A DNA stretch of 64,000 bases from an uncultured Thermoplasmata archaeon (GCA_963748615.1 CAVVJQ010000002.1:17718-81717), one strand, 5' to 3'; positions 17,735 through 52,959 are shown, numbered from the stretch's first letter. Numbers and translations: made by a program. The notes: generated by a model not told the origin, from the sequence alone.

Positions 17735-18589
17735 ATGGCTTCCCTCGGCTTCTTGAGAAAGGTCACTATGAAAGGATGGGTGATCGGCGGAATACTCATC
17801 GCTGCTGGCGTGCTCTCCCTCGTGTTCGCATACAATACACATATGGACATCCTGCAGATGATGCCCACGACCGACCCGGCTGAGCTGCAGGAGATATCCG
17901 ACTTGCAGGATCTCCGAGGGATATGCATCAACCTCGCTTTCGGCACGCTCTTCGTTGGCATCTTCACGATATTCGTGATGACTGAACGCGCATTGCCTTC
18001 GGACATCGCGCAGAGACAGATGCTGTCCGAGGTGAGGATGACGAACGAGCTGGTCGCCAACTTAAACCTTGAAGGCTCTGCGGCCTATGTTCCGGCGAAG
18101 TACGCACTCACCAGGGAGAAGGTGATGATACCGTCCTCGGACTCGTCGCTGTCCCTTCCGATAATGACAGACGACCTCGTCTTCTCGCTCGGAGCGGACA
18201 GGGCCACTCTAGGCATATTCCTCACGCCACCAGGACTCGACCTCCTGGATGGTTTCGAGCGCGATCTCGCAGTATCGAACAAGGAGGTCGGACTCGAGGC
18301 TTTCGAGGGCAACATGCAGGTCGTGAAGCTTGGCTTCGGCCTGGTGAAGGATTTCAAGATCAAGGAGAGGGCAGGAGAGATCATACTCAGGGTCGAGCAC
18401 TCCATGTTCAAGGAGAGTTGCGATACGATCCGAGCACTCATGCCGAACGTGTGCAGACAGGCAGGATGTCCGATCTGTTCGGCCTTCTTGACGGGGATCG
18501 CGCGTTCGACAGGAAAAGTGACCAGGATATTGAGGGTCGAGAACGATACTGACCGGATACAATTCCACATGATATTGAGCGATTGGTGA
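17735..18589 (+). CDS. module 1 gene 1: N-terminally membrane-anchored protein with a conserved C-terminal 4-Cys motif (possibly V4R-like; family uncertain)
   Basis: TM segment WVIGGILIAAGVLSLVFAY. The C-terminal pattern CDTIRALMPNVCRQAGCPICS (C-x10-C-x4-C-x2-C) and the terminal ILSDW are shared with the paralogue at 45273..46121. A GGAG lies upstream of the ATG. Confidence 0.55.
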   Translation: MASLGFLRKVTMKGWVIGGILIAAGVLSLVFAYNTHMDILQMMPTTDPAELQEISDLQDLRGICINLAFGTLFVGIFTIFVMTERALPSDIAQRQMLSEVRMTNELVANLNLEGSAAYVPAKYALTREKVMIPSSDSSLSLPIMTDDLVFSLGADRATLGIFLTPPGLDLLDGFERDLAVSNKEVGLEAFEGNMQVVKLGFGLVKDFKIKERAGEIILRVEHSMFKESCDTIRALMPNVCRQAGCPICSAFLTGIARSTGKVTRILRVENDTDRIQFHMILSDW

Positions 18590-18647
18590 TTTTTCGAAGG
18601 CAGAACCTGTGATATAATCGCCATTGAAGTGAGTTATTTATATCCGC

Positions 18648-20846
18648 GTGTGCCTGAAGCGAAGTGTGTCCGTTCCTAGGGGGGTGACGGCGTGCTTGCT
18701 AGCGGTTGTTCTCTTGATGCCCGCAACCGCAGCGGCAGTAGCGGAGACGATTCCGCACGAGCAGTTCGACCAGGCGGAGCTAGATCTAGCGGTCCTGATG
18801 CTTCTGCTAGACGAGAGCCTCGGGCTCGCGACCGAATCGATATTGTCATGCGTTGCGGACGATGCCGTCGGCGCGATCACATATTCCGATAGACTACAGG
18901 AATCGCTCGCTGCGCCGACCGAGATCATAGACGACCTCTCCCACGATGTCGAGAGCTACGAGTTCCTGATAACATTCATACCACCGTTCGAGACGATGTC
19001 GGTCGACGATTCCTCGATAACCGAGACATATTCCATATTCTTCGATGAGCTGACAACGCTGAGGTTGCTCGCGGAGGAGGCGGTCCTCCCACCTGAGGTC
19101 TACGAATCGGGCATGGAGACCCTCGCATCGGCGACCGCATACGTGAAGGAACTGATACATCAGTTGGATGTCCTTGAGAAAGATGTCGATGCGATAGATG
19201 CTCTTCCGGAGATACCTGAACAGGGTACCCTTGATGTGCAGCCGCTCCTCGATGCGATCGCCCTATTGAGAGAGAGACTCGCTCAGTTGGAGATGGAACT
19301 CGAGCTGCTGGCCGAGAAGATACTGAACCCTGTCCCGCGCCTGTTCCTGGTGCTCAACGACGATTCAATGTACCTCGGCCAGACACTCATAATCACGGGA
19401 TACCTGTTCTACATGGGACAGTTCGTGCAGGACCTTGACGTGAATGTGCGCAGGGACGGGACTGATATTTCGAATATGAGCACAGGAGCATCTGGTAGGT
19501 TCTCGATCACATACTACATACCGATCGACCCGATTGAGCTGGGCACATACATTTTCGACGCGTCAACAGTCTTCAACGAGGTGGAGTATTGGTCTGAAGA
19601 GACACAACTCATCGTGCTCAAGATACCGACAAGCACGATCATGTATCCAGAGGACAGCTATGAGATTGGTCCTACAGCGACCATCGACGGGATGCTGGGG
19701 GATTATCTTGGTTCCGGACTCGTGGACCAGATCGTGAGCGTAACGATAGACTCGACGATCTTCGATTTCACGACGGATGATTCAGGCGGCTTCGAAGCCG
19801 TTATCGTCACTGCTAGCCTCGGATTCGGCCCTCACAATATATCCGCGACATATCCTGGAAATACTACTCATCAGGGTTCATCCACACCGGTCTACGAATT
19901 CCATCTGAAATATCCAGCAGTACTCACGCTGGACGTATCAGGTGATGAGTTCGAGATGGGTGACGAGATCGTGTTCAACGGAACTTTCACAAACATGTCC
20001 TGGGAGTGCATAGGTTCCGCGACGATTCGATTCATAATCGATGACAGATACTTCACGAGCACAATCACATCAGACAATGGCACCTATAAGATGACTGAGA
20101 ACTCCGAGGATATCGGGAAAGGGACCCATGTCGCTTTCGCCGAGCACGACGGCGTCGGGACTCCGTGGTTCCATACACGATCCGAAGAGGTCACCTTCAC
20201 TATCACTGAGAAGAAATCATCGAACATATTCCCAGGGATCGAGACCAGTCCAAAGGACATATTCGATTCGATCAAGGATTTCTTCACTGGACCCTTCCTT
20301 GATTTTCTCAAGAACGCCTTCTTCGGAGAGCTCGCATGGTTGGCATGGATGATCCTGGCATTACTCATCGTCCTTGCATACTATGGCTACAAGAGATTGC
20401 AGTTCCGCATATGGGCGAACCGCCTGAGACAGATGGACTCGCAGAGAGTCTCCATCTTCGAGAACAAAGTCGTCACTGCGAAAATGAGGCCTCTCTCAAC
20501 ATTGCCTGCAGCGCAGTCCAAGAGTCTGATGAAGGCGACACTGTGGAGGTTGATCGATACGCTCTTGGGCTCGATGCCGCCAAAGGACGCGGTCGTGATC
20601 GGGTATCAGAAGTTCATACAGTTCCTCAGGACCGATAGGGACGCCACCGTCGACAATAGCCTCACGCACAGAGAGATACAGACAGAGCTGGTCTTCATGG
20701 GCTACCCGAAAGAGACCATAGGCAAGGTGACCAATATCTACGAGAAGGCGATGTTCACCGATCGTGATGTGACCATCGAGGATGCGCTCGGGTTCGCAGA
20801 CTCACTTGCCGTGTTGGAGGGGTTCGGTAGGGCGGTGCCCGAATGA
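18648..20846 (+). CDS. module 1 gene 2: large exported protein with coiled N-terminal region, three beta-sandwich (carboxypeptidase-regulatory-like) units, a TM segment and a DUF4129-like cytoplasmic tail
   Basis: Signal-like LLAVVLLMPATAAAVA and late TM LAWLAWMILALLIVLAYYGY. The tail ...THREIQTELVFMGYPKETIGKVTNIYEKAMFTDRDV resembles DUF4129. It is colinear with paralogue 46180..48312. The start could be GTG 18684 instead, because a TATA-like box at 18635-18642 is very close to 18648. Confidence 0.6.
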   Translation: MCLKRSVSVPRGVTACLLAVVLLMPATAAAVAETIPHEQFDQAELDLAVLMLLLDESLGLATESILSCVADDAVGAITYSDRLQESLAAPTEIIDDLSHDVESYEFLITFIPPFETMSVDDSSITETYSIFFDELTTLRLLAEEAVLPPEVYESGMETLASATAYVKELIHQLDVLEKDVDAIDALPEIPEQGTLDVQPLLDAIALLRERLAQLEMELELLAEKILNPVPRLFLVLNDDSMYLGQTLIITGYLFYMGQFVQDLDVNVRRDGTDISNMSTGASGRFSITYYIPIDPIELGTYIFDASTVFNEVEYWSEETQLIVLKIPTSTIMYPEDSYEIGPTATIDGMLGDYLGSGLVDQIVSVTIDSTIFDFTTDDSGGFEAVIVTASLGFGPHNISATYPGNTTHQGSSTPVYEFHLKYPAVLTLDVSGDEFEMGDEIVFNGTFTNMSWECIGSATIRFIIDDRYFTSTITSDNGTYKMTENSEDIGKGTHVAFAEHDGVGTPWFHTRSEEVTFTITEKKSSNIFPGIETSPKDIFDSIKDFFTGPFLDFLKNAFFGELAWLAWMILALLIVLAYYGYKRLQFRIWANRLRQMDSQRVSIFENKVVTAKMRPLSTLPAAQSKSLMKATLWRLIDTLLGSMPPKDAVVIGYQKFIQFLRTDRDATVDNSLTHREIQTELVFMGYPKETIGKVTNIYEKAMFTDRDVTIEDALGFADSLAVLEGFGRAVPE

Positions 20847-22003
20847 TGCCATCACGGTTGAAGAGGTTCTACGCGCTGGCGGTCACGCTCGGACTTGCGT
20901 GCATATTCCTAGCGCTGTCACTAGTGGTGCCTGTAGTAGGGACGACCACGGACTTCAGCATATACAACGCAGGCTGGAACGGGACCAGCGGCCTCGCGGT
21001 GAGGACTTACAAGACGGGGGAGTTCGTGCCGGCCCTGGAGCTCAGAGGAACGGACGCTTCTATCGAACCGGCTATAATCGCACTTGATAGAGTTGAGCTC
21101 GATCCGCTCACGAGCAGCATAATCATCATCGGGCCTAGCAGGACATTCACGAAGGCGGACGGAGATTACATGTCGGATTTCCTGCAAGGAGGAGGGACAG
21201 TACTCCTCGCAGACGATTTCGGATCCGCCAACACGTTGCTCGCATACCTGGACACGAGCAGCAGGTTCACCAAGAACCTGGTCTTGGATCTGGCCTTCGA
21301 AAAGAAGCCCGAGTTCGTGGTCGCATACAACTTCGAGGAGAGCGACCTCACGGAAGAGGTCTCCACGATCCTGCTGAACTATCCGTCTTCCCTGAAGCCC
21401 AGTGCGAGCGCCGAGGTGCTGGCGACGACGAGCCAGGCAAGCTGGGTGGACCTGAACGACAACATGTACAAGGACGACAACGAAGTGTCTGGGCCGTTTC
21501 CGCTGCTGTCGGTCGAGCAGGTCGGAAAAGGCACTCTGATATTGCTGGCGGATCCGAGCATCCTGATAAACAGCATGTACGACCAGTTGGACAACTCGGT
21601 CCTGGTGGACAACATCTTGGCATTCCTCTCGGAGGGACGCACGGACATACTCATAGACGAGAGCCATAGGAACTTCTTCGACCCGCTCTCGTTCACTTCG
21701 AATGTTCTGATGGGCATAGGCGAGGATGCGAAGTTGGCACTCATAATCATCATAGTCGTCGCGTTCTTCCTCGCGACCACCGATGTGTTGCAGATGACCT
21801 GCCGATTCATACTCAAGTCGATGAATACAGCATGGAGCAGGGTCCTCAGAAAGTTCACCAAGGAACAGGCGACAATGCCAGATGCATTCTTGAACGATGA
21901 TGAGATCCTCCGCAGGGTGATGGAGAGGCACCCCAACTGGAACAAGGGAGTGCTGTCACACCTCATGCGTCAGCTGCAAAGACATGGAGCGGTGAAGAAA
22001 TGA
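20843..22003 (+). CDS. module 1 gene 3: DUF4350-like protein (N-terminal TM, extracytoplasmic domain, C-terminal TM plus short tail)
   Basis: Motifs DFSIYNAGWNGTSGLAV, VLLADDFGSANTLL, FEKKPEF and LNYPSSL are shared with 48302..49468. It overlaps its neighbours by 4 nt at both ends (ATGA-type coupling). Confidence 0.6.
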   Translation: MMPSRLKRFYALAVTLGLACIFLALSLVVPVVGTTTDFSIYNAGWNGTSGLAVRTYKTGEFVPALELRGTDASIEPAIIALDRVELDPLTSSIIIIGPSRTFTKADGDYMSDFLQGGGTVLLADDFGSANTLLAYLDTSSRFTKNLVLDLAFEKKPEFVVAYNFEESDLTEEVSTILLNYPSSLKPSASAEVLATTSQASWVDLNDNMYKDDNEVSGPFPLLSVEQVGKGTLILLADPSILINSMYDQLDNSVLVDNILAFLSEGRTDILIDESHRNFFDPLSFTSNVLMGIGEDAKLALIIIIVVAFFLATTDVLQMTCRFILKSMNTAWSRVLRKFTKEQATMPDAFLNDDEILRRVMERHPNWNKGVLSHLMRQLQRHGAVKK

Positions 22004-23466
22004 CCGATCCCAGCGAGAAGTCATTGCAGACCTCATCCCTCGGGATGGCACTCATGGCAACCTGCGCCGCGTTCGCAATTGCAGGGTTTCTCTTCATGAG
22101 TTTGTCATGGGTCATCGCAAGCGTCGTCATAACCACCATGATGGTCTATGCACATGAGAGGTTCGCATGGGAGCTATCCAACTCACGTCTCGATGTGAAA
22201 CACGAGATACTGAGTAAGATGGCCTTCGCCCAGGAGCCGGTCAGTGTCAAAGTCGAGATCAGAAACAAGGACCATACGCCACTCAGAGCTTCGCTTGAGG
22301 ATGTGCTACCGGAAGACTGCATCCTCGGAGCAGGGACCAACATACTCGATGCCAAAGTGCCTCCGCGTTCCATCAAGTCGTTCACGTACTCGTTCATACC
22401 GACGAGACGAGGGGGGCACACGATCGGCACACTAAAGATCACACGCACGGACCAGTTCGGACTGTTCACACACGTGCGATACTTCGAGGACGCCCAGCGA
22501 CTGGGCGTGCACACACAGAAGGAAAGCTTCGATGCGGCCAGGAAGACGGCGGGTAAGGAGCACTTCGAATATTCTGGCATGTTCAAGACCCCGGCTGTCG
22601 TGCTTCGTGAATTCCAGTTCGACGGGATAAGAGAGCACATCCCTGGCGACCGCTCGAGGGACATACACTGGAAGAGCCTGTCCAAGACCGGCAAGCTCAT
22701 GACGAAGATATACAAGAAAGAGGGCACTCTGAGGACCATGATATTCATCGACTGCAGTCGAAGCATGCGACTGGAGAAGGGCGGGTCGGCCAAGCTGAAC
22801 CACGCTGTGGACCTTGGCCTCCAACTCTCGAATGTGCTCATCAGCAGCTTCCACCCCGCAGGCGTGACGACATACGACGAGATCACGGTCACGGGGGAGG
22901 TGAGACCGTCGCTGGGGAAGCAACAGTTCGAGCGCATCACGAAGGTCCTCAGAGGGGTCCCGGGCACGATCATCGTCGATGATGAGGAGCAGCCACCCAA
23001 AAACGAGACGACCACGGCAGACCATTCCCCCGTGGCGATTCATGACCGCGGAACTGGCAGCGCGTTCCTGAATGCTGTGAGCGCAGTCAGACGGACGAGC
23101 GCCAAGAGGATGACAGGACTTGGACTCGAGAGCGTTGCGAAGGATATGATAGCCCACACAAAGAACCAGAAGTTGCTGTTCATAGTCGTCTCGGACCTGG
23201 TCTCCTCCAGAGATGCCGTCCTATCGACAGCTCGGTTATGCCAGCGGACCGGCAACAGGCTGCTGGTCATACAGACCTACGATGATTGGTACTCTTCGCC
23301 GGAGAGAGTCCTCGATTTCGCTGAAGGAGAACAGCTCTATGCAAAGCTGACAGAAGGGGTCAAGGTCGAGTCGGCGCTAAGGAGAGCAGGTGCGTCATTC
23401 ATGAGGATAGGTCCTGCGGACACCACGGTGAGGATAGTCAGAAGCATCAGGAAGGGGTTGACATGA
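22000..23466 (+). CDS. module 1 gene 4: DUF58 family protein (vWA-like, usual partner of MoxR ATPases)
   Basis: Signature region FQFDGIREHIPGDRSRDIHWKSLSKTGKLMTKIYKKEGTLRTMIFIDCSRSM. Two N-terminal TM helices are present. Confidence 0.8.
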   Translation: MTDPSEKSLQTSSLGMALMATCAAFAIAGFLFMSLSWVIASVVITTMMVYAHERFAWELSNSRLDVKHEILSKMAFAQEPVSVKVEIRNKDHTPLRASLEDVLPEDCILGAGTNILDAKVPPRSIKSFTYSFIPTRRGGHTIGTLKITRTDQFGLFTHVRYFEDAQRLGVHTQKESFDAARKTAGKEHFEYSGMFKTPAVVLREFQFDGIREHIPGDRSRDIHWKSLSKTGKLMTKIYKKEGTLRTMIFIDCSRSMRLEKGGSAKLNHAVDLGLQLSNVLISSFHPAGVTTYDEITVTGEVRPSLGKQQFERITKVLRGVPGTIIVDDEEQPPKNETTTADHSPVAIHDRGTGSAFLNAVSAVRRTSAKRMTGLGLESVAKDMIAHTKNQKLLFIVVSDLVSSRDAVLSTARLCQRTGNRLLVIQTYDDWYSSPERVLDFAEGEQLYAKLTEGVKVESALRRAGASFMRIGPADTTVRIVRSIRKGLT

Positions 23467-24026
23467 CCACTGTGAATGCGCATCTGAAGATTGCGGCCAC
23501 AGTGGCCTCGGCGAGTGTGATGCTCATATTCACGGAGGTCACGCTATCCACACTGATCCCGATCCTTGTGGGAGTCTCCCTGATAATATTGAGCGTAGGG
23601 ATGAGCTACAGACCACCAGCGGTCGTAGGCATCCTGACCATACTGGCGGTTTCCGCACTGGCCACCGACATCGCGACGCTCACTGATGCACGCAACCTTT
23701 TCGCGGCGACAGTGTCACTGTACGTGCCGTCCTTGATCATGATGTGGGCAGCGTTGTCGGCCGAGCGGGACGACGACTATGAACTCAGGATGATGACGAG
23801 ACCGTTCGGACGGTTCGTCATCGCTGCAATCGTGTGCCTGCTGAGCGTTCCGGTGTTTGCCGTGGTTCTTGGCATCCTGCAGCCGAGCATGTCGATGCGC
23901 CTATCGACCATGGCAGAGATGTCACTGCTGCTGCTCGTGACCTCGACGACAGCATTCCTCCTCGCAAGGTCATCGCCCGATTCGCTCAATGCCGAAGCGG
24001 AGGCGGAACAAGAGATCTCCGAGTGA
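23463..24026 (+). CDS. module 1 gene 5: polytopic membrane protein (4-5 TM), unknown family
   Basis: 187-aa hydrophobic ORF whose start overlaps the DUF58 stop. It has the same position and architecture as 52450..52959 in module 2. Confidence 0.55.
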   Translation: MTTVNAHLKIAATVASASVMLIFTEVTLSTLIPILVGVSLIILSVGMSYRPPAVVGILTILAVSALATDIATLTDARNLFAATVSLYVPSLIMMWAALSAERDDDYELRMMTRPFGRFVIAAIVCLLSVPVFAVVLGILQPSMSMRLSTMAEMSLLLLVTSTTAFLLARSSPDSLNAEAEAEQEISE

Positions 24027-24079
24027 TACTGACCATGGACGATATCGTCGTTTTACATCCTGAAGCGCGCGCGAACAAT

Positions 24080-24089
24080 CATTATATAC
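24080..24089 (+). promoter_or_regulatory. TATA-like box upstream of the archaeosortase gene
   Basis: cattatatac lies about 25-30 nt upstream of the TTG at 24114. This fits an archaeal TATA/leaderless arrangement. Confidence 0.4.
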
Positions 24090-24113: not shown

Positions 24114-25106
24114 TTGAGACTCAAGGGTGAATGGCTCCTGCTGTTGGGGTCTATGCTTGTTGCAGGGGCGTTGTACAATCACTACATGGGGCACTCCGCC
24201 CTTCTGGTCGAGATAATCATGGTGGCCGTGGGATGTGCCATGGCCATCTATTCGGCGATGCTGCTCAAGGTCCCTGAGGATGAGGAAGCCCATGGGATCC
24301 TGATCGATCTGATGTCACGATTCATCTCCAGGGAACGATGCAGGATGCTCATACCCATGCTGGGATTCCTCCTGCTATTCTTATGGTCGACCTGGAAGAT
24401 ACTCGTGAACGGCGAAACCAACCTGCAGATGGAGGACTTCATAGTCACCTTGCTGGGGCTTTCCCTGGTGGTATACTACTCGGGCCCGAGCGCGTTCGCA
24501 GAAGTGAAGGACTTCGTGGTCCTGTACCTGATGTTCCTCACGATAGTCTTCGTCATCATCTGGCGCACCTACTACTTGGTGACCGGGGAGTCGCACTATG
24601 AGATCACATCCTATGCGGAGCATTACTTCGTGACACTTCCCGTCGTCAATCTGCTCGGACTGCTGGGATTCCATGTCACCGCGGTCCTCGAACTCGACGG
24701 CATCGGTCTGGCGAACATCATAGAGTATGTCCACGATGGGCGGCTGCTCAGACTCGGGATAGGCGTCGGGTGCAGCGGCCTCTATTCAGCAGGCCTGTTC
24801 TTCTCGGCATTCCTCGCATTCGTGCTCGTGCGGTATCGAAAGATGAGTGCGCGCGTCGGCATCGGTTTGGGGATTGGGCTGCTTGTCACCTGGGCATCCA
24901 ACATAATCAGAATGGCCATCACGATCATGGTAGGGATAGCATACGGCCATCCCGCGCTCGCGTTCGTACATGCTTACATCGGGATACTCATATTCGTGGG
25001 ATGCATCACGGTCTTCTGGATCCTCATAGTCAGGTGGCTTGACAAGACGGAGAAGATCCATACGGGTCCAGATATTCCGACGGTCGAGACATCACCAGCG
25101 GACTGA
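24114..25106 (+). CDS. archaeosortase (exosortase/archaeosortase superfamily); PEF-CTERM-associated ArtC-type is the most likely subtype
   Basis: Polytopic 330-aa protein with the three hallmark sites in order: Cys in GVGCSGLYSAG, Arg in ASNIIRMAI, His in FVHAYIGILIF. Two PEF-CTERM-type proteins are encoded 6-7 kb away. Confidence 0.8.
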   Translation: MRLKGEWLLLLGSMLVAGALYNHYMGHSALLVEIIMVAVGCAMAIYSAMLLKVPEDEEAHGILIDLMSRFISRERCRMLIPMLGFLLLFLWSTWKILVNGETNLQMEDFIVTLLGLSLVVYYSGPSAFAEVKDFVVLYLMFLTIVFVIIWRTYYLVTGESHYEITSYAEHYFVTLPVVNLLGLLGFHVTAVLELDGIGLANIIEYVHDGRLLRLGIGVGCSGLYSAGLFFSAFLAFVLVRYRKMSARVGIGLGIGLLVTWASNIIRMAITIMVGIAYGHPALAFVHAYIGILIFVGCITVFWILIVRWLDKTEKIHTGPDIPTVETSPAD

Positions 25107-25111: not shown

Positions 25112-25729
25112 TCAGAAGAGTGAGTCGTCATCGATCTCCTCGTTGTCCATGAGCCGCTTGAGTTTCATGGCGGAGATGATCCGGTCCTCGGGTGGGATCA
25201 GTTCCGATGATGCACCCTTATGGAGTTCGTGAACGGTGTCGCGATACACTGACCTGCTCAACACGCCCTGGATGAGTTCACGTTCTATCATCTCACCGTA
25301 ATCGATATCGTCCTCATCTGGCGCATCGGGCGTCTTGACCATGATCCGACCAGGCGCGATTGTTCCTGGCGTTCCAGCGCTGGCGGAGATGTTGGGCACC
25401 TGTCCAAGGATGGTCTGGCGACCATATGACCAGGGTCTCCCTCTGACCACCGGGGGCTTGTCGACTGCAGCTGCGTCCGTATGCGCACTCGACCTCGCAT
25501 CATATTCCTCCTTTGCTGGAAGCGCAGTCTCTCGAACAGACGATGACCGCCTTGGCCAAATGTCGCGATACGAAAACCCGGTTTCCGATCTCCCTCTGTT
25601 CATCATGAACAGGACCAGGATGAAGATCGCTGCGATGATGGATGATATCGAGATGATGCCTGCGAGCGAAGTGAACCATGATCCGCTGGATCCACCCGAT
25701 AGCGTACTCCACCTCAACAGCGGATACAT
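25112..25729 (-). CDS. TM segment plus ~160-aa acidic cytoplasmic tail; probably the detached C-terminal anchor of the upstream subtilase
   Basis: N-terminus GGSSGSWFTSLAGIISISSIIAAIFILVLFMMNRGR (N-out, C-in by the positive-inside rule). The start overlaps the subtilase stop region. The tail ends in DNEEIDDDSLF. Confidence 0.5.
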   Translation of the reverse strand: MYPLLRWSTLSGGSSGSWFTSLAGIISISSIIAAIFILVLFMMNRGRSETGFSYRDIWPRRSSSVRETALPAKEEYDARSSAHTDAAAVDKPPVVRGRPWSYGRQTILGQVPNISASAGTPGTIAPGRIMVKTPDAPDEDDIDYGEMIERELIQGVLSRSVYRDTVHELHKGASSELIPPEDRIISAMKLKRLMDNEEIDDDSLF

Positions 25730-45272: not shown

Positions 45273-46121
45273 TTGAGAGGAAGGGATATCGAGATAGCAG
45301 GGGCTAGCCTGGTAGGGGTCGCTCTTGCCTTGGTCGGTGTCTTCCTACTTATCTTGATGTTTCAAAACCAATCGCAGATAGATGAGATCGGTGAGACGAC
45401 CGACCCGCTCCTGCTGGAGGAGCTGGCAGATCTCCGAGACTCGAGGGACGTGTACATGGTCTCAGCGATCGGGTTCTTGTTCCTGGGCCTTTTCGGAGTG
45501 TTCATACTGTCAGAGAGGAGCGTCCCGACCAAACTCTCTGAGTCGCAGATGCATGGGGCCGCCAGGATGGCGCATGACTTCATCGCAGGTCTTTCGCTCG
45601 GCGGAAACGCATCCTACCTACCAGCCAGGAACGGCCTGACCAAGGAGCGGTTGTTCATTTCAGCGACTAAGGGAGAGAGCGTGCCCCCAGCTGCTGTCTC
45701 GGACGACCTTACAGTGTCTCCAGGAAGTGATGGTTCGACTCCGGGCATGATCGTGGAGCCGTTGGGTCTTGAAATGTTGAACAACATCCAATCGGAGAGC
45801 GGCGTGACCTTCGAAGGCATAGGACTCGAGGCTACGGAAGGTGCGTTGCAGGTGCTCAGATACGATCATGGTATCATCAAGGATTTCCACTTCAAGGAGA
45901 GAGAGGGAAAGACCATCCTACGCGTGGAGTACAAGGAGCTGCTCGAGACTTGCAGGAGAGTGAGGAAGGAGATGCCTGACACCTGCAGGCAGATGGCCTG
46001 CGCAGGCTGCGCGTGCATCCTCACGGCCGCAGCGAGGGCCACGGGCAAAGTGGTCGCGGTCGAGGAAGTCGATGTCGACAAGGACATGGTCGTCTTCACA
46101 CTGAACCTCAAGGACTGGTGA
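45273..46121 (+). CDS. module 2 gene 1: paralogue of 17735..18589 (TM anchor plus C-terminal 4/5-Cys motif)
   Basis: TM LVGVALALVGVFLLILMF. The C-terminus is CRRVRKEMPDTCRQMACAGCACILTAAARATGKV...LNLKDW. The ORF track starts at 45090, but alignment to the paralogue and the TATA position favour the TTG at 45273. The start is uncertain. Confidence 0.55.
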   Translation: MRGRDIEIAGASLVGVALALVGVFLLILMFQNQSQIDEIGETTDPLLLEELADLRDSRDVYMVSAIGFLFLGLFGVFILSERSVPTKLSESQMHGAARMAHDFIAGLSLGGNASYLPARNGLTKERLFISATKGESVPPAAVSDDLTVSPGSDGSTPGMIVEPLGLEMLNNIQSESGVTFEGIGLEATEGALQVLRYDHGIIKDFHFKEREGKTILRVEYKELLETCRRVRKEMPDTCRQMACAGCACILTAAARATGKVVAVEEVDVDKDMVVFTLNLKDW

Positions 46122-46179: not shown

Positions 46180-48312
46180 ATGGACGTGCACCCCGAACGC
46201 TCATCATCCCCAGGACGAAGACTGTGCATGATAGCGATTATGCTCCTGGTGGTCCTTTCAGCGATCCCTATCGGGGCGAAGGCAGAGATACCGCACGAGA
46301 ACTACGACCTCGCATCCTCAGACCTCGACACCGTCATCGCACTCCTCAACTCGTCTATAAGATCGTTCGAAGGGTCGCTCAGGGCGCTCAACGAAGAGGA
46401 CACTGCAACGGCTGGAGAGTACATCGACAGGGTGAGCACGGTACTCCGGCCGGTCGAAGGCGTCCTCGAGGACATACAGGATGTCGCAGGGAGCTACGAG
46501 GACCTGAACGGACTGCTGCCTCCGTTCACTTCACTCTACGATTCGACGGATTCGTTCCTTGTGATGGAGGTCGAGCTCCTGGGAGCCAGGAGCGATATCG
46601 TCTCATCGTCGGAACTGCTCAATCTCTCAGATGAGCAACTGATAGAAGCTCTTGATAACATCGAGAGATTCAACTCCCTCGCCAACCGGATGAACTCCAC
46701 GATCGACGAGATGCTGGTCCATGCGCATGAGATCAACGCGCTGACCGTCGATGGCACGACGCCGTTCGTGCCGAACGACCTCATCGAGTTGATAGAGCAG
46801 CTGCGAGACATGATAGGCAAGATCTTCACGGACATGCAGCGTGTGATAGACGAGGACATTCCATGGGACAGCGATGTCTCGTTCATACTGATATGGATCG
46901 AGGATCAGAACCTGTACCTCGGCGAGACGATGGTCGGGGGAGGATACCTGTTCATACACGGCTCGTTCGTCGTCGGCGAGACCGTGAACATCTCCATGGA
47001 CGGCGGTCAGCTGCTTCAGGTCGTGACCGGGGCCGGGGGCAGGTACGCGTTCACTCAGTCGATACCGCTGAACGCCTCCTGGCTCGGCACGCACACGATC
47101 ATCGCGCATGCATACACGGCGAACGGCACGCTCGATTCCGACCCGGTCAATGTGATCATCTCGCTGGTCCCGACGACGATCAAGCTGACAGCGGATATGA
47201 CCGTCATGTCACGGGACGAGGCGGTCGCTCTGCAGGCCAAGCTATCGGACGTCAAGGGCAAGCCACTGTCTCACATGAACTGTTCCCTGGCGATCGATGG
47301 GGAGGAAGCCGCGTTCATAACGGATGATGCCGGCAGCGAGGAGTGGTCACGGACCGGCTCAGAGCTGGGGTACGGTACCCATGTCATGTCCGCATCATTC
47401 CCCGGTGTGTTGCCATATGCTCCGAGTACATCCAGTGATGTGACAGTGGTCGTGGACATACCGACCAACATCACGATCAACCTGTTCGCGGACCGTCTGC
47501 GGAAGGGAGGTCATGTCGTCGGAGACGGCATGCTCGTGTCGAACGGCTCGCAGCCGATGGGCATGCAGAACCTGAGCCTGTTCATCGACGGCGAATACTT
47601 CAGGGACGTCAGGACGGAGGCGGACGGAGTGTTCGCATTCTCCATCAGCACGGACAATCTGACCGTCGGCGCCCACGTGCTCAGGGCGGCATTCGTCCTG
47701 AGAGATGACATATGGAGATACTCGGAGGCAGATGCGAGTTTCGTGATAATCTCGATGAAGTATGCCGATTACCCGTTCTTCCCATGGATCCCTGGCTGGA
47801 GCATCGGCCTTGCCGAGGAGATACCGTATCTGTTCTTCGGAGAGAACGCGTACTACACATGGATGTTCATCGTGCTCGTAGTGGGCGTGGTCATCAAGGC
47901 GCTCCAGGTTAGGAAGGCCCGCAGGGCCAAGGAGCGCGAGCTCGTCCCGTCCCCCGAGGAGGACTTGGAAGAGGGCATGGAGTTCGGACCACAGGAGGAG
48001 AGATATCTGGTGCCGGAGCCTGCGCCTGAGTGGCTTTCAGGGCCGAACGAGAAGATAGTCTGGCACTACAACAAGATGATATCGTTCCTGATGAGAAGGC
48101 GCAAGATCGGGATAACGGACAACATGACTCATTGGGAGGTTGCGAGACTGCTGCGATCGCTCGGCTACTCCGCGACCACCACTACGACGGTCACCGTCCT
48201 TTTCGAGAGGGCGTACTATTCGGGTTCCACGCTTTCCATGGCGGATGAGATCCAGATGGGATCATCGACACATATGATGAAGAGGACCGGGGGTACCAAT
48301 CTTGCAGGCTAG
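46180..48312 (+). CDS. module 2 gene 2: paralogue of 18648..20846 (exported, beta-sandwich units, TM, DUF4129-like tail)
   Basis: Signal IAIMLLVVLSAIPIGAKA and the shared EIPHENYD / ETIPHEQFD start of the mature part. Late TM YYTWMFIVLVVGVVI. The tail MTHWEVARLLRSLGYSATTTTTVTVLFERAYYSGS is DUF4129-like. Confidence 0.6.
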   Translation: MDVHPERSSSPGRRLCMIAIMLLVVLSAIPIGAKAEIPHENYDLASSDLDTVIALLNSSIRSFEGSLRALNEEDTATAGEYIDRVSTVLRPVEGVLEDIQDVAGSYEDLNGLLPPFTSLYDSTDSFLVMEVELLGARSDIVSSSELLNLSDEQLIEALDNIERFNSLANRMNSTIDEMLVHAHEINALTVDGTTPFVPNDLIELIEQLRDMIGKIFTDMQRVIDEDIPWDSDVSFILIWIEDQNLYLGETMVGGGYLFIHGSFVVGETVNISMDGGQLLQVVTGAGGRYAFTQSIPLNASWLGTHTIIAHAYTANGTLDSDPVNVIISLVPTTIKLTADMTVMSRDEAVALQAKLSDVKGKPLSHMNCSLAIDGEEAAFITDDAGSEEWSRTGSELGYGTHVMSASFPGVLPYAPSTSSDVTVVVDIPTNITINLFADRLRKGGHVVGDGMLVSNGSQPMGMQNLSLFIDGEYFRDVRTEADGVFAFSISTDNLTVGAHVLRAAFVLRDDIWRYSEADASFVIISMKYADYPFFPWIPGWSIGLAEEIPYLFFGENAYYTWMFIVLVVGVVIKALQVRKARRAKERELVPSPEEDLEEGMEFGPQEERYLVPEPAPEWLSGPNEKIVWHYNKMISFLMRRRKIGITDNMTHWEVARLLRSLGYSATTTTTVTVLFERAYYSGSTLSMADEIQMGSSTHMMKRTGGTNLAG

Positions 48313-49468
48313 GGTCAAGCGAGGGTACATGATGGCCACGGTCCTCGTCGCAGCCTTGGGCCTGACCATGCTGACCATGTTCACCCCGGCGATATCCACG
48401 ACGGAGGACTTCTCGATATTCAACAGTGGTTGGAACGGCACGAGCGGGCTCGCAGTGTCCGTATACGAGACCGGCAAGTTCGTCCCGAGTTTCAGGGTGG
48501 AGACTTCGGGGACCGATGTGACCATCGCTGAACTGGGGTTCGAGGAGCTCGACCTCGATCCTGATGCGGATGCCATCGCAATCATAGGACCATCCGAGAC
48601 ATTCTCCGCCTACGATGGCGACCTCATGGGCGCCTTCGTCAGGGCTGGAGGCGCACTGCTCATCGCGGACGATTTCGGCTCTGGCAACTCGCTCCTGGAG
48701 AAGATGGGAGCGACCTCGAGGTTCTCTGGCGACCTCGTCATGGACCTATCGTTCGAGAAGAAGCCGGAGTTCCCCGTCTGCTTCGACCTGCGTGTGGACG
48801 ACCTGACTCGGAACGTGTCCGCGCTGCAACTGAACTACCCATCATCGATCATCTCTGGAACGGGCACGACCACCGTCGCATACACCAGCAGCGCCAGCTG
48901 GCGCGACACGAACGGCAACGGACTCCAGGATTACGGAGAGCCTTGGGGACCGTTCCCGATACTGGCCAGGGAGACGATCGGGGCAGGGACCGTCGTCTTG
49001 CTGTCGGACCCGAGCGTGCTCATAAACGGCATGAGCGACCTGCTCGACAACGCGAGATTGGCGGACAACGTGATCTCGCATCTGAGCTCGTCTCGCACGG
49101 CAGTGTACTTCGACGAGAGTCACAGGACCTTCTTCGACCCGGTCGCCGTGACCTCGGAGTTCACGGGCTCGATCTCGAACCCATTGAAGGGCGTCATCCT
49201 TTTCACCGCCATGGCACTCGCGCTCTGGGTCGCCACTGACTTCATCGACCGCGCGATTGCTTGGATTTCCATGAGCATCGGGAAGGTCGTATCGTTTTTC
49301 AGAAGTCTCCTGCGCAGACGAGAGGTGCAAGAGCCCGTGCCCGAAGAGAAGAGCATCGAAGACCTCACGAAGGAGATACATGCGGCTCATCCCGAGTGGC
49401 GTGAAGGACTCATAAGACACGCGCTCAACGAGCGGCGGAGGCACAGACGCGCCCAAGTGAAACCGTGA
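48302..49468 (+). CDS. module 2 gene 3: DUF4350-like protein, paralogue of 20843..22003
   Basis: Shared motifs DFSIFNSGWNGTSGLAV, LLIADDFGSGNSLL, FEKKPEF and LNYPSSI. Roughly half the residues are identical to the module 1 copy by eye. Confidence 0.6.
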   Translation: MQARVKRGYMMATVLVAALGLTMLTMFTPAISTTEDFSIFNSGWNGTSGLAVSVYETGKFVPSFRVETSGTDVTIAELGFEELDLDPDADAIAIIGPSETFSAYDGDLMGAFVRAGGALLIADDFGSGNSLLEKMGATSRFSGDLVMDLSFEKKPEFPVCFDLRVDDLTRNVSALQLNYPSSIISGTGTTTVAYTSSASWRDTNGNGLQDYGEPWGPFPILARETIGAGTVVLLSDPSVLINGMSDLLDNARLADNVISHLSSSRTAVYFDESHRTFFDPVAVTSEFTGSISNPLKGVILFTAMALALWVATDFIDRAIAWISMSIGKVVSFFRSLLRRREVQEPVPEEKSIEDLTKEIHAAHPEWREGLIRHALNERRRHRRAQVKP

Positions 49469-49477
49469 CGACCGACA

Positions 49478-49732
49478 TCAGGATAGTATGAGCCAGACCC
49501 GTCTGATCACGATGACCACGAATAGGAAGAGTCCCAAATAGATGAAGTAGTCGATCTTGTCCTTCAGATCGCGTCCGAGTATCCCGTCCGTGAGTTCCCT
49601 GGCCACAAGAAGACCGATGATCTCGAGCGTCAGCAGGACCTCGACGCCGGCGGACAATGAGATTATGATGGACGCCAGGGTCCATATCGAGATGCCAAGG
49701 AACACCTTGTGCGACAACAACATCAGGTCCAC
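49478..49732 (-). CDS. small 3-TM membrane protein, paralogue of 58357..58602
   Basis: 84 aa. Shared motifs LEIIGLLVARELTD / LILIGVLVIRELTD and the C-terminal VIVIRRVWLILS / IIVVRRVWEILS. It is inserted in opposite orientation inside module 2. Confidence 0.55.
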   Translation of the reverse strand: MDLMLLSHKVFLGISIWTLASIIISLSAGVEVLLTLEIIGLLVARELTDGILGRDLKDKIDYFIYLGLFLFVVIVIRRVWLILS

Positions 49733-49867
49733 CGAAGGTCAGGGCTTCAGATAGTACAGGCCCCGCAGACTGAAGATGAGTGCTCGGTATAAGAGATTCA
49801 CGCATGCGGCGGTGCTTGATAGTTGAGAACAGATAGTTTTCATATACAACAACACTCTTCTCATTCG

Positions 49868-50023
49868 ATTCCGTTCATCGATGAGCAGGACGCGGCCACG
49901 GATACATTCATGAGCGATGAGGAAATTGTACGGTAGGTGGTGGAGAGGCTCCCCGGGTGGAACAGGGGCATGCCATCGCACCTTCCGCGTCAGATAGAAA
50001 GGCACGGAGCTGTGAAGGAATGA
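49868..50023 (+). pseudogene. relic 3' end of a third DUF4350-like gene, with an in-frame TAG; its stop overlaps the MoxR start (ATGA)
   Basis: Translation FIDEQDAATDTFMSDEEIVR*VVERLPGWNRGMPSHLPRQIERHGAVKE aligns residue for residue with the C-terminus of 20843..22003 (FTKEQATMPDAFLNDDEILRRVMERHPNWNKGVLSHLMRQLQRHGAVKK). The TAG at 49934-49936 replaces an Arg position. Confidence 0.6.
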
Positions 50024-50994
50024 TAGATTTCAGAGTGAGGGCACCGGAAGATGTGGAGGCGGTCCTGGAAGCAGTGAACGAGCAGATAGGGAAGGTCGTG
50101 GTCGGATACCACGAACAGGTGGAGGACTTCATGATGTGCCTCATCACACAAGGGCACATACTCATGGAGGGAGTGCCTGGAGTTGCCAAGACCACATTGT
50201 CGAAGGCGTTCACGAAGGTCTGCGGGTTGTCGTATAAGAGGATACAGTTCACGCAGGACCTGCTCCCATCGGATATAACTGGGCATTACTTCTTCAACCA
50301 GAAGACTGGAGACTTCGAGATCAGGAAAGGGGCATTGTTCGCAGACTTCATCCTCGCAGATGAGATAAACAGGGCTCCGCCAAAGACGCAGTCCGCCCTG
50401 CTTGAGGCGATGCAGGAACGGCAGGTCACCATCGAGGGGACGACCTTCGAGCTGCCTACCCCGTTCATGGTCATCGCAACGCTCAACCCCATCGAGACCG
50501 AGGGCGTGTTCCCGTTGCCAGAAGCACAGCTAGACCGGTTCATGTACAAGAGCATCATGGACTACGTGTCCGAGGAGGACGAGCTGGGCATACTGGACCT
50601 CAAGAGCAAGAAGAACGGGGTCATGGAACAGGTGCTGGACAGAGACGTGCTGATGGACATCTGGAACCTATACAACAGCATGCACGTCGACGAATCGATC
50701 AAGGAGTACATCAGAGACATAGTCGTCGCATCGAGGAACATCGAAGCGTTGACATTGGGTGCGAGTCCGAGAGCGGGCGAATACCTCCTGTACTCATCGA
50801 GGGCGCATGCGCTCATAGCGGGCAAGGACTACGTCATACCCGATGATGTCAAGGCCGTCGCGCACAAGATCCTCGATCACAGACTCATACTCTCTATCGA
50901 TTCCGAGCTCGAGGGGCTGACGGTCTCCGGCGTCGTGGATGACATCCTGAACAAGGTGCCCGTGCCCAAGAGCCACGGTCCCGTCCAGGAATGA
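50020..50994 (+). CDS. moxR: MoxR-family AAA+ ATPase
   Basis: Walker A GVPGVAKTT and Walker B/sensor region ILADEINRAPPKTQSALLEAMQERQVTIEG. It is ~324 aa from ATG 50020, preceded by GTGAAGGA. The ORF-track extension to 49957 overlaps the DUF4350 relic and is rejected. Confidence 0.9.
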   Translation: MIDFRVRAPEDVEAVLEAVNEQIGKVVVGYHEQVEDFMMCLITQGHILMEGVPGVAKTTLSKAFTKVCGLSYKRIQFTQDLLPSDITGHYFFNQKTGDFEIRKGALFADFILADEINRAPPKTQSALLEAMQERQVTIEGTTFELPTPFMVIATLNPIETEGVFPLPEAQLDRFMYKSIMDYVSEEDELGILDLKSKKNGVMEQVLDRDVLMDIWNLYNSMHVDESIKEYIRDIVVASRNIEALTLGASPRAGEYLLYSSRAHALIAGKDYVIPDDVKAVAHKILDHRLILSIDSELEGLTVSGVVDDILNKVPVPKSHGPVQE

Positions 50995-51016
50995 TCTTCC
51001 CGTCCGGAGGAACTCG

Positions 51017-52438
51017 ATGAGATACACTTACCTGGGACTGTCGTTGGTCGCTCTATCCGCGATACTGTACCTAGAAGCGTTCCTATTCGAGAACCTCATC
51101 CCAGCGTTCTGCGGCCTCGGGATAATCGCATACATGATCTACGACAGGTTGTCGTTCTCAGAACAGCTCGAGAACCAACGCCTCGAAATCAAGAGGGAGG
51201 TCATGGAGAAGATGCTGTTCGCCGACAAACCGTTCACCGTGCTCACCCGGGTACGGAATCTGGGAGATCCGATCCGGATAACCTTCGAGGAGGTCGTCCC
51301 TGAGGGATTGGAGCTGAGGTCAGGAACGAACAGCATCAGCACGGACCTCAACTCGGGAGAGGTCGCGAAGATCAAGTACACTGCCCAGGCCAAGAAGAGA
51401 GGGTACTACACGATCGACAGGATCAAGATAGAATCGAAGGACAGAGCGGGCTTCTTCGAATCCGATTCGATGATGACACACGCGACCCATATGAGGGTCC
51501 ACAGCTCGAGGGAGGAGCTGAGGAAGGCACACACGGTCGCGAAGAGGGAGCACATGGAGATGCTCGGGAAATCACCCGAGAGATGGTCGAGGACGAGGGA
51601 GTTCGAGTTCGAAGGGATAAGAGAATTCGTCCCAGGGGACAGGTTCAGGGACATCGACTGGAAGAGTTTCTCGAGGGTCCAGAAACTGATGACGAAGGTA
51701 TACGAGCGCGAGACGATGGTCCCGACGACGATCCTGTTGGACTGCGGCAGGAGCATGAGGATCGCGATCGGGGAAGGCTCGAAACTCGATCACGGCATCA
51801 GATTATCCATACAGTTGACGAAGGTGCTTCTGTCAGGCTATCATCCCACTGGCGTCGTCGCCTTCGACGACATCGGAACGGTCGCGCGAGTCAAGCCCGA
51901 TGTGGTGAGAGGACAGTATGACAAGGTCCTCAGAGCGTTGCTGCACGTGCCTCAGGAGATACGGACCGACACCGTAGCTCAGCCGAGACCTGCGACAGAA
52001 GCGGTGGTCTTGCAGGATGCTGCTGGGGGCAAGTTCGTCAGCGTCGTATCGTCATTCATAGGAGGGCACAAGAGGGGCGCTGCCAAGGGTAAGGTGGGTG
52101 CTGAGGGGATCGTCCGAGAAGCGATCGCGAAGGGCGGCAAAGGCCAGATGTTCATGTTCATATCGGACCTCGAATCGAACCAGGATGCCATCGTAAAAGC
52201 TGCGTCTCTCGCAAGGGCGCATGGGCACCGGGTGATTTTGGCGAGTCCGGATTCCACATTATACGGTATATGCAGGGAGAGCCTCACCGTCGAGCGGATC
52301 GAAGAGTTGTACGACCCGCATCTATCCAAGCTCAAGACCCTCGCCAGGCTCAGAAGACTGGGCGTGATCGTACTCGAGCTCGGACCAAAGGACGAGGCTG
52401 CGACCATCGCAAGGCAGATCAGGAGGATGACCATTTGA
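51017..52438 (+). CDS. module 2 DUF58 family protein (vWA-like MoxR partner)
   Basis: FEFEGIREFVPGDRFRDIDWKSFSRVQKLMTKVYERETMVPTTILLDCGRSM. Two N-terminal TM helices. Paralogue of 22000..23466. Confidence 0.8.
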   Translation: MRYTYLGLSLVALSAILYLEAFLFENLIPAFCGLGIIAYMIYDRLSFSEQLENQRLEIKREVMEKMLFADKPFTVLTRVRNLGDPIRITFEEVVPEGLELRSGTNSISTDLNSGEVAKIKYTAQAKKRGYYTIDRIKIESKDRAGFFESDSMMTHATHMRVHSSREELRKAHTVAKREHMEMLGKSPERWSRTREFEFEGIREFVPGDRFRDIDWKSFSRVQKLMTKVYERETMVPTTILLDCGRSMRIAIGEGSKLDHGIRLSIQLTKVLLSGYHPTGVVAFDDIGTVARVKPDVVRGQYDKVLRALLHVPQEIRTDTVAQPRPATEAVVLQDAAGGKFVSVVSSFIGGHKRGAAKGKVGAEGIVREAIAKGGKGQMFMFISDLESNQDAIVKAASLARAHGHRVILASPDSTLYGICRESLTVERIEELYDPHLSKLKTLARLRRLGVIVLELGPKDEAATIARQIRRMTI

Positions 52439-52449
52439 GAGAGAGCTCC

Positions 52450-52959
52450 ATGGCGGTCGTCGCTGCGTTCGTCGCGCTGTGCACGCTATCGAGTTTCTCA
52501 GGGGACGCGGTCCTCATCTTCGGCGCGTCATGCGCCCTCATAGTGGTCGGCATATTGGTCCGCAAGGCGATCATAGGCATCGCCGGGATATTCATGCTCG
52601 GCATATCGTCCCCGTTCGCGGTTCAGTACGAGAGGGTGGCGGATGGGTTCACATTGATGGCGGTGACCGCTCTCGTCGTAATATCCATGGCCGTACTCAC
52701 TCACTTGGCTGCGACATCCGACGAGAAGCGGAGGTTCGAATGGCGAGTGGACAGGAGAGCGTTGCTCATAAGCGCGGTCGTGACATTGCTGATCGCCAAC
52801 TCCATCGTCATCGTCTCCGCGATCGGGGTCTTGGGGACATTCCTCGGGGATATCGAGACGACCGGAGCGAGAGTGATCATACTGGCATTCGCGACGGCTT
52901 TGGTCAGCGCGATCGTGTTGGTGCCGCAAGTGGACGAAGTGGAGACTGAGCACGCATGA
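52450..52959 (+). CDS. module 2 polytopic membrane protein, positional counterpart of 23463..24026
   Basis: 169 aa from ATG 52450 (MAVVAAFVALCTLSSF...), with 4-5 TM helices. The ORF-track start at 52270 overlaps DUF58 and is unlikely. Confidence 0.55.
   Translation: MAVVAAFVALCTLSSFSGDAVLIFGASCALIVVGILVRKAIIGIAGIFMLGISSPFAVQYERVADGFTLMAVTALVVISMAVLTHLAATSDEKRRFEWRVDRRALLISAVVTLLIANSIVIVSAIGVLGTFLGDIETTGARVIILAFATALVSAIVLVPQVDEVETEHA

Follow-up and report, generated by a model that had tools for sequence, protein, structure and literature searches.

Two diverged MoxR/DUF58/DUF4350 gene sets nested around a single ATPase gene, one of them interleaved with an archaeosortase and giant surface proteins, in a Thermoplasmata archaeon

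Why should two sets of genes for one membrane-associated system lie close together on a chromosome with only one ATPase gene between them, and what is the relationship of that system to the archaeosortase and giant surface proteins encoded in their midst? The question is raised by a stretch of 64,000 nucleotides (the window) from an uncultured Thermoplasmata archaeon (GCA_963748615.1 CAVVJQ010000002.1:17718-81717). The genes concerned encode a DUF7982 protein (a), a protein with an Ig-like ectodomain and a DUF4129 tail (b), a DUF4350 protein (c), a DUF58/vWA protein (d) and a membrane protein with five transmembrane (TM) segments (e). Each is present twice, whereas the entire window holds a single MoxR ATPase gene (50020-50994) and a single archaeosortase gene (Art, 24114-25106). 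An earlier note had read the ten genes as two colinear modules that bracket an island of surface-protein genes. Comparison with relatives indicates a different arrangement. The outer genes a, b, c, MoxR, d and e form one set (the U set), and the inner genes, which we mark with a prime, form another (the P set) that is nested inside it.

Loci and contigs of relatives are denoted by L numbers (L001 to L130), and the first of these contigs were found via homologues of gene a. In L004, L005 and L006 the order is Trx3-a-b-c-MoxR-d-e without interruption, Trx3 being a Thioredoxin_3 gene. L005 is the closest relative of the window, with 84% DNA identity across the flanks. Its proteins are 93, 78 and 81% identical to a, b and c of the window and 92, 89 and 84-85% identical to MoxR, d and e, but only 25-41% identical to the opposite (P) copies. 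Gene a of the U set is 70% identical to its counterparts in L004 and L006. The DNA of L005 is colinear with the window from 14913 to 22003 and then jumps to 49873-55649; colinearity with the left part ends at 22003, exactly at the stop codon of c. The protein identities and the DNA colinearity thus identify the outer a-b-c and MoxR-d-e as halves of one U set, within which 27.9 kb (22000-49872) sits between c and MoxR. In a neighbour-joining tree the MoxR of the window groups with the U-type proteins of L004 and L006, apart from all P-type MoxR'. The features of the window are as follows, with TM segments and topology taken from hydropathy.

17021..17671, plus strand: Thioredoxin_3 gene Trx3 (Pfam Thioredoxin_3, 53.3 bits)
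17735..18589, plus strand: a (U), DUF7982 protein, 2-TM hairpin and soluble domain, with C-x10-C-x4-C-x2-C and a terminal W
18648..20846, plus strand: b (U), signal/TM segment, helical and Ig-like ectodomain, TM segment and cytoplasmic DUF4129-like tail
20843..22003, plus strand: c (U), DUF4350/arCOG01314-type protein with a membrane-anchored flavodoxin-like (GldG/GIFT-like) ectodomain
21853..22003, plus strand: left 151-bp copy of the c 3' end (functional), left boundary of the P block
22000..23466, plus strand: d' (P), DUF58/vWA protein with a membrane anchor at its N-terminus
23463..24026, plus strand: e' (P), membrane protein with about five TM segments
24114..25106, plus strand: archaeosortase (Art), ArtC-like, of an unclassified subfamily
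25112..31065, minus strand: giant S8 subtilase, here in two open reading frames (ORFs; 25714-31065 and 25112-25729), with a C-terminal TM segment and cytoplasmic tail
31261..31743, minus strand: small secreted transthyretin/Ig-like protein with the tail IPELG-TM-RRK, predicted archaeosortase substrate
31882..32376, minus strand: second small protein, with an IPEFG-TM-KRRK sorting signal as its tail
32458..44906, minus strand: giant adhesin of about 4100 aa with DUF11/CLIPPER, DUF7507 and SdrD_B/SpaA-type domains and no PEF-type tail
45273..46121, plus strand: a' (P), DUF7982 protein; TTG start codon, gene in divergent orientation to that of the adhesin
46180..48312, plus strand: b' (P), Ig-like ectodomain and DUF4129 tail
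48302..49468, plus strand: c' (P), DUF4350 protein
49481..49723, minus strand: DUF8044' (P), intact 81-aa membrane protein, final gene of the P block
49873..50023, plus strand: decayed c 3'-end remnant with an in-frame TAG, right boundary of the P block
50020..50994, plus strand: MoxR AAA+ ATPase (U; AAA_3, 205 bits, and AAA_lid_2)
51017..52438, plus strand: d (U), DUF58/vWA protein
52450..52959, plus strand: e (U), 5-TM membrane protein
56390..57364, plus strand: DUF1616 (pfam07760) membrane protein, 261 bits
58360-58602: resident DUF8044 copy

The inner genes have a native order of their own. In the window they read d'-e'-Art-[subtilase, two IPEFG-tailed proteins, adhesin, on the minus strand]-a'-b'-c'-DUF8044'. 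P-type loci were located by scanning a DUF58 alignment against species-representative genomes, and the window proteins were then mapped by tblastn. About 34 Thermoplasmata genomes have the order MoxR'-d'-e'-Art followed on the minus strand by the genes for the subtilase, the two small IPEFG-type proteins (pef) and the adhesin. The whole P locus is seen in L007 and L089, two stretches of one 644-kb contig, where it reads Trx3-MoxR'-d'-e'-Art-subtilase-pef-pef-adhesin (4135 aa)-a'-b'-c'-DUF8044(-)-DUF1616. L129/L130, the nearest relative of the P block, agrees with this order; identities to the window are 75% for d' and 63% for e' (L130), 80, 72 and 80% for a', b' and c' (L129) and 86% for Art. 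The d' protein is 68% identical to that of L009 and merely 33-34% to U-type d. DUF8044' matches the P-type copies that follow c' at 75% (L089, by tblastn) and 84% (L129). In L021 the order is MoxR'-d'-e'-a'-b'-c', with neither archaeosortase nor island. The P order is a circular permutation of the U order, and in most genomes Art and the minus-strand genes split it. In all, some 70 Thermoplasmata loci show the P order with a MoxR' of their own in front.

It follows from the orthology of the outer and inner genes that module 1 and module 2 of the earlier note are each a chimera of two lineages: the outer genes are contiguous in L004-L006, and the inner ones belong to a native MoxR'-d'-e'-Art-island-a'-b'-c'. 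We are highly confident that the two sets, diverged to 24-42% identity, are nested and not side by side. The claim that only module 2 has a MoxR is right in that there is one such gene in the window, but this gene belongs to the outer U set, and the P set has probably lost its own. Relatives have one MoxR per set, the window one for two. We found no nested locus of this kind among about 70 other loci examined.

The two-copy observation itself is sound. By BLASTP, a and a' are 37% identical over 279 aa (E 5e-67), b and b' 24% over 752 aa (E 2e-49, a full-length alignment), c and c' 42% over 384 aa (E 2e-107) and d and d' 33% over 482 aa (E 2e-89). The e pair gave no BLASTP match; with profiles that include relatives, hhalign aligned it end to end over 152 columns (probability 93.5%, E 2e-7). 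All five paralogous pairs of the earlier note are therefore real, and our ORF listing puts the genes at the positions and on the strands given there. The quoted motifs are likewise all present. The two a proteins have C-x10-C-x4-C-x2-C and a terminal DW, the two c proteins share DFSI[YF]N.GWNGTSGLAV, ADDFGS.N, FEKKPEF and LNYPSS, and d and d' have DI[HD]WKS.S...KLMTK.Y in common. Paralogy and motifs together place the duplication far beyond chance.

Most family assignments held when checked with hidden Markov models (HMMs). DUF4350 matches c at 58.8 and c' at 60.1 bits (Pfam cut-off 30.4), and the c proteins have an N-terminal signal/TM segment (residues about 11-29) and a C-terminal TM segment (about 298-316). 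DUF58 matches d' at 40.4 and d at 44.0 bits (cut-off 23.4), with weak, sub-cut-off matches to VWA_2 and BatD. DUF4129 is found in b' (27.7 bits, cut-off 24.8) but reaches only 14.6 bits in b; the Ig-like model Big_3_5 gives 27.8 bits for b and 32.2 for b', both below its cut-off of 35.5. The MoxR match to AAA_3 is accompanied by Walker A (GVPGVAKT) and Walker B (ILADEINR) motifs. The suggestion that gene a is a V4R protein did not survive, as there is no Pfam V4R match at E<=5; relatives of gene a carry PF25939/DUF7982. An AlphaFold model of gene a is of moderate quality (pLDDT 65.5), and a Foldseek search with it returned nothing under E 5e-3. Bet3/TRAPPC3 and H-NOX appeared at a non-significant E of 0.06-0.2, so that a Bet3/H-NOX-like fold is hinted at only. 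Both sets are intact, with dN/dS values of 0.08-0.32 against the nearest relatives, which argues that both are in use. We note that dS against L005 is uneven inside the U set, about 1.0 for b and c and about 0.35 for Trx3, a and e, which suggests more mosaic recombination within the U operon. A scan for sigma-70 promoters and terminators was uninformative in an archaeon.

How did one set come to lie inside the other? Positions 14119-14269 of L005 match the window twice, at 21853-22003 and at 49873-50023. The left copy, which is the 3' end of the functional c, is 77.5% identical to L005. The right copy corresponds to the final 151 bp of a U-type c, with identities of 85% to L005 and 72% to the left copy; its translation, FIDEQDAATDTFMSDEEIVR*VVERL..., is interrupted by the in-frame TAG. 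It sits directly upstream of MoxR, and its last bases are the ATGA within which MoxR starts. On the left, d' begins with an ATG that shares bases with the stop codon of c (AAATGACC), at the point where MoxR' starts in relatives. The bases past the c stop codon have their homologue in the spacer that separates MoxR' from d' in L008 and L011 (...AGATGACGG...), and the GTG that serves as native start of d' in relatives is GAG in the window. A U-like c remnant just upstream of a P-type MoxR' was significant in L007 and L012 only. It thus cannot be taken as a general trait of P loci, and in those two it points to similar recombination elsewhere.

These junctions suggest a history of insertion followed by deletion, which we consider probable though far from secure. 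A P-type locus would have recombined into a U-type locus via the c 3' end/MoxR region, giving a-b-c-MoxR'-d'...c'-DUF8044'-(c remnant)-MoxR-d-e with the 151-bp duplicate of c. A clean deletion bounded by two (A/G)ATGA sites would then have removed MoxR' and brought d' into translational coupling with c. Several points weigh against this account. With an identity of just 72%, the c copies imply either an old insertion or different sources for the two. The GC and GC3 (GC at third codon positions) of the P-block genes overlap those of resident genes and carry no foreign mark. Finally, the event may have been either insertion in the lineage of the window or loss from L005 by recombination between the repeats; the three identities, taken over 151 bp, are too little to date or direct it. 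An integrative mobile element was considered for the P block and rejected, as the repeats are not close to identical and no recombinase domain was seen among the module and island genes, which make up all of the block.

Other accounts of the arrangement have to be set against the insertion-plus-deletion history. Were a-b-c-d'-e'(-Art) and a'-b'-c'-MoxR-d-e real units, paralogous around the island and sharing one MoxR, as the earlier note supposed, each block would have every component once in the order a-b-c-(MoxR)-d-e, as is the case; the ten genes are all intact, and the stop/start overlaps (ATGA at c/d', and d'/e') suggest co-translation. The blocks nevertheless mix lineages, with a/b/c 78-93% identical to L005 and d'/e' 63-75% to P-type proteins, none of the roughly 70 other loci has this arrangement, and the c/d' junction is best read as a secondary deletion scar. 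We regard this reading as quite improbable. It is also conceivable, though in our judgement unlikely, that an ancestral tandem a-b-c-MoxR1-d'-e'-Art-island-a'-b'-c'-MoxR2-d-e was reduced differently to the U and P types and that the window is a near-relic of it minus MoxR1. A circular permutation is most simply reached via duplication followed by end deletions, U- and P-type loci share one chromosomal site from Trx3 to DUF1616, and the U-like c remnants before MoxR' in L007 and L012 are what one would expect if a-b-c once stood there. Such an ancestor predicts no c remnant between DUF8044' and MoxR, where one lies at 49873-50023. Moreover, the nested form is seen in the window alone, its sister L005 has the very same simple form as the distant L004 and L006, and the similarities of P block and flanks are incongruent (L033 versus L129/L130). 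An assembly artefact that fused a U-type strain with a P-type strain has in its favour that the sequence is from a metagenome contig, the proteins of the window lying on a single contig of 455 kb, and that several long genes are frame-broken. The left junction, however, consists of a microhomology of 4-6 bp (ATGA) and an adapted start codon, the right one of a decayed repeat, and these are not sites at which assemblers join sequences. Since neither is an exact shared repeat, a chimera of this kind is very improbable indeed.

The surface locus is rearranged in other relatives also. In L033-L037 and L042 the entire P locus is inverted, with MoxR' abutting DUF1616 (e.g. L033 7831-13009). The flanks of L033 are 90-100% identical to the window and its P genes 43-55%; P blocks thus do not follow the genome tree, and the mismatch points to allelic replacement of the surface locus in L033. 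L040 10001-12450 (CP070748.1, the genome of L028) is a second partial copy comprising the 3' part of d', e' and Art, with no MoxR upstream and no subtilase downstream. In the MAG 'chromosome' CP070732.1, a'-b'-c' lies beside a 967-aa N-terminal fragment of the adhesin (L090, 19873-41045), about 370 kb from MoxR'-d'-e'-Art-subtilase-pef-adhesin (L014, 1598048-1619490). This split may be real, through rearrangement, or may reflect a misassembly at the repeats of the adhesin gene.

What, then, is the archaeosortase that travels with the P set? As the earlier note had it, 24114..25106 encodes one: the protein matches the exo_archaeo signature (NCBIfam TIGR04178) at 38.3 bits, above the cut-off of 23. 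It is not a member of ArtC (TIGR03762) by HMM, reaching 53.7 of the 100 bits required. The catalytic Cys, Arg and His residues expected of such enzymes are conserved, C220, R240, R266 and H286 being invariant in 14 of 14 orthologues. On sequence criteria we place Art in an unclassified ArtC-like subfamily. The two small proteins are about 160 aa long, and their C-termini consist of IPE[LF]G, a hydrophobic stretch and RRK. By eye such C-termini follow the PEF-CTERM pattern, but the NCBIfam model of that name gave no match even at E<=5; the earlier designation as PEF-CTERM proteins therefore stands for the pattern and not for the model. Dozens of orthologues end in IP[EQ][FLM]G, about 20 hydrophobic residues and a basic cluster, and in the whole 64-kb window such a tail occurs in two ORFs only. 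The protein at 31261..31743 has sub-cut-off matches to Big_1 and CarboxypepD_reg. A similar C-terminus, (I/V)PEF(G/S) followed by a TM segment and then a basic tail, is found on large surface proteins (940-970 aa) of SBP_bac_5 or NosD/beta-helix type encoded close to the locus, as listed here; Art thus probably has substrates beyond the two small proteins.

L029 3654-6470: large (I/V)PEF(G/S)-tailed surface protein
L036 2648-5551: large (I/V)PEF(G/S)-tailed surface protein
L100 1490-4411: large (I/V)PEF(G/S)-tailed surface protein
L126 545-3448: large (I/V)PEF(G/S)-tailed surface protein
L089 13604-16465: large (I/V)PEF(G/S)-tailed surface protein

The subtilase and adhesin of the island, put at 1783 aa and about 4150 aa in the earlier note, are both present but frame-broken. 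The main ORF of the subtilase is 1783 aa long (Peptidase_S8, 219.9 bits), and a frame break near 25744 (25714-25744) detaches the C-terminal 205 aa; in L007 the subtilase is one ORF of 1981 aa. The adhesin is read in three frames, with breaks near 39315-39328 and 32891-32895, and its orthologue in L007/L089 is a single ORF of 4135 aa. Its C-terminus is without a sorting signal. These frame breaks, like the shortened GT4 gene and the split SBP_bac_5 gene described below, may be sequencing errors or real decay.

The linkage of Art to the module is conserved. Among the 33 species-level genomes with enough sequence, the gene after e' is Art in 31. In a reverse scan, an alignment of 14 Art orthologues was run against metagenome contigs; 28 contigs had at least 600 bp upstream and were counted, and 27 of them have d' and/or e' ahead of Art. 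The Art-containing block occurs in at least three flanking contexts: methyltransferase-Trx3, inverted DUF1616, and YjeF/FtsZ. Two loci have neither subtilase nor adhesin, L109 with MoxR'-d'-e'-Art-one pef-a'-b'-c' and L127 with Art-a'-b'-c'. The neighbourhood comparison proposed by the earlier note thus bears out a conserved link to an archaeosortase, PEF-like proteins and a giant adhesin. In the literature searched we found no paper that mentions an archaeosortase together with MoxR, nothing experimental for DUF4350, DUF7982 or DUF1616, and no description of an archaeosortase system within a MoxR/DUF58/DUF4350 cluster. The conserved embedding of Art with candidate clients appears to be undescribed, as the earlier note had surmised.

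Does linkage mean function? We hold a functional coupling of the module with Art and its cargo to be possible, and no more than tentatively so, for several observations tell against it. The module occurs without Art or island in L004-L006, L021, L043 and L051, and Art-type signals are found on proteins encoded elsewhere; neither partner is therefore strictly dedicated to the other. The Art-linked loci all belong to one Thermoplasmata clade in which unrelated flanks are often syntenic, so that the linkage may partly be inherited order. Of the vWA MIDAS motif, d retains only a part (DC[GS]RS). The frame breaks in subtilase and adhesin, taken with the loss of MoxR', mean that the P set could be decaying in the window. 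The rival explanation, which we find doubtful, is linkage without functional coupling: the Trx3-DUF1616 site would be a hot spot for surface genes, the module would serve the general envelope (e.g. an S-layer), and Art would have its own substrates. Apart from the module-only loci and the IPEFG-type tails on SBP_bac_5/NosD surface proteins encoded elsewhere, the inversions, replacements and mosaic dS at the locus and the further surface-protein and glycosylation genes nearby speak for such a hot spot. Against it, Art lies within the module, between e' and a', even where subtilase and adhesin are missing (L109, L127), the order MoxR'-d'-e'-Art-subtilase-pef-pef-adhesin is kept across three flanking contexts, and a search that starts from Art recovers the module (27/28). 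The dedicated envelope machine proposed in the earlier note has thus gained a conserved genetic link and lost its intrinsic dedication, since the module also exists without Art or island; the system itself had already been predicted (PMC5898192).

That prediction was made by Makarova, Galperin and Koonin in 2015 (PMC5898192), who described the arCOG01314 system as a novel secretion or membrane-remodelling complex. Its parts are a membrane-anchored DUF4350 (pfam14258) protein whose ectodomain is a GldG-like flavodoxin fold, an adjacent AAA+ ATPase of MoxR/GvpN type (COG0714), a protein in which a vWA domain is preceded by an Ig-like domain at the N-terminus, and Ig-like ectoproteins, together with DUF1616/pfam07760 membrane proteins and small 2-3-TM and 5-TM proteins (PMC5898192). 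The window has the same parts list, including the DUF1616 protein at 56390-57364. Judged by these parts, our module corresponds to this arCOG01314 system and, given the 2015 prediction, is not itself new. The description in PMC5898192 contains no archaeosortase, sorting-signal proteins, subtilase or giant adhesin. Here, in contrast, one lineage is permuted (MoxR-d-e...a-b-c) with Art and cargo inside, and the window has two sets nested around one ATPase.

The outer and inner d genes can also be compared with other vWA partners of MoxR enzymes. Such MoxR/vWA (DUF58) pairs include the Bacteroides Bat operon, RavA-ViaA, CbbQ-CbbO and NorQ-NorD, in which an ATPase ring works via a vWA adaptor on a client complex. 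The likeness is an AAA_3 ATPase gene next to a DUF58/vWA gene. The clients here, however, would be membrane or extracellular proteins, the MIDAS is partly kept, there are no TPR or BatA/B-type partners, and the ATPase of the window faces two vWA partners with 33% mutual identity. Among sorting systems, archaeosortase C/PEF-CTERM and archaeosortase A/PGF-CTERM were reportedly described by Haft et al. in 2012 (as cited in PMC5244752). Our locus resembles them in the exosortase/archaeosortase signature with its invariant Cys, Arg and His and in adjacent substrates with a tripartite C-terminal signal (IPEFG, TM, basic); it differs from ArtC/PEF-CTERM in the score of the enzyme (53.7/100 bits) and in tails that the PEF-CTERM model does not match. 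Gram-positive sortase loci have a dedicated sorting transpeptidase beside surface proteins, and by analogy with sortase pilus and adhesin loci a sorting enzyme here lies beside SpaA/SdrD_B/DUF11-type, isopeptide-prone proteins. CLIPPER/DUF11 domains are covered in a survey of isopeptide domains (PMC12617251). Unlike the sortase loci, ours has an enzyme of an unrelated family, a presumed membrane or lipid anchor in place of the cell wall, a giant adhesin without a sorting signal and an ATPase-driven membrane complex in the locus.

Genes around the module may add to the system. Trx3 is a constant neighbour on the upstream side of both U-type and P-type loci (L004-L007, L009, L130 and many others), and it is conceivable that it acts with the Cys4 protein a. 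PadR precedes Trx3 in several relatives. DUF1616 adjoins module genes in L001, L004, L006, L033-37, L044-51, L089 and L129, and its product is a probable further component. In L001-L003 (e.g. L001 10001-10900) a DUF7982 gene stands alone between a methyltransferase gene and DUF1616, the rest of the module being absent there. In the window and L005, e and DUF1616 are separated by a minus-strand radical SAM/SPASM gene and a pair of GT4 glycosyltransferase genes (53022-55358, 55582-56139); these are missing from L004 and L006, where DUF1616 directly follows e. The GT4 gene at 55582-56139 has half the length of its L005 orthologue. The SBP_bac_5 surface-protein gene at 8581-14758 is broken into three ORFs. 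An MttB-family methyltransferase homologue (7090-8538) is a conserved landmark upstream of the locus in relatives; it has no in-frame stop and is thus of the non-pyrrolysine type. Other surface-protein and glycosylation genes occur around the locus.

A working model can be constructed from the predicted topologies. Protein a is probably a 2-TM hairpin with its Cys4 domain in the cytoplasm. Proteins b and c are predicted to be bitopic, each with a large ectodomain and, in the cytoplasm, a short tail; d is predicted to have its N-terminus at the membrane and its vWA domain on the MoxR side, and e to have five TM segments. The whole would form a trans-membrane complex. On its cytoplasmic side a MoxR hexamer would work on the tails of a, b and c by way of the vWA protein d, and so drive or check the assembly state of the b/c ectodomains. 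In the P lineage the complex and its dedicated archaeosortase may have become specialised to build or anchor a surface structure. The archaeosortase would process the two small IPEFG proteins to give a lipid-anchored base, and the structure would also comprise the isopeptide-type giant adhesin and the membrane-anchored maturation subtilase. In the window the single U-type MoxR would have to serve both the U and the P set, and one MoxR serving both copies is plausible. A bolder reading, speculative and in our estimation rather unlikely, is that the MoxR/DUF58/DUF4350/DUF7982 complex is the missing energised partner of the archaeosortase pathway, one interchangeable MoxR running both 24-42%-identical sets. 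It would then be an ATP-driven machine that exports, positions or quality-controls the IPEFG proteins and the giant adhesin.

The nested locus suggests that recombination at the c/MoxR boundary swaps and reassembles surface loci of this kind, and it illustrates that a gene-by-gene reading can take a nested insertion for a tandem duplication. The window and its relatives provide a comparative series that runs from the module only, through the module with Art and with Art and one substrate, to the full island and to the double sets, nested and with a single ATPase. The arCOG01314/MoxR/DUF58 system, found widely in archaea and with relatives in bacteria, was predicted in 2015, and no client of it has become known in the years that followed. 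The P lineage, interleaved with Art, its substrates, the subtilase and the adhesin, would offer the first concrete candidate clients and with them a testable MoxR-vWA hypothesis.

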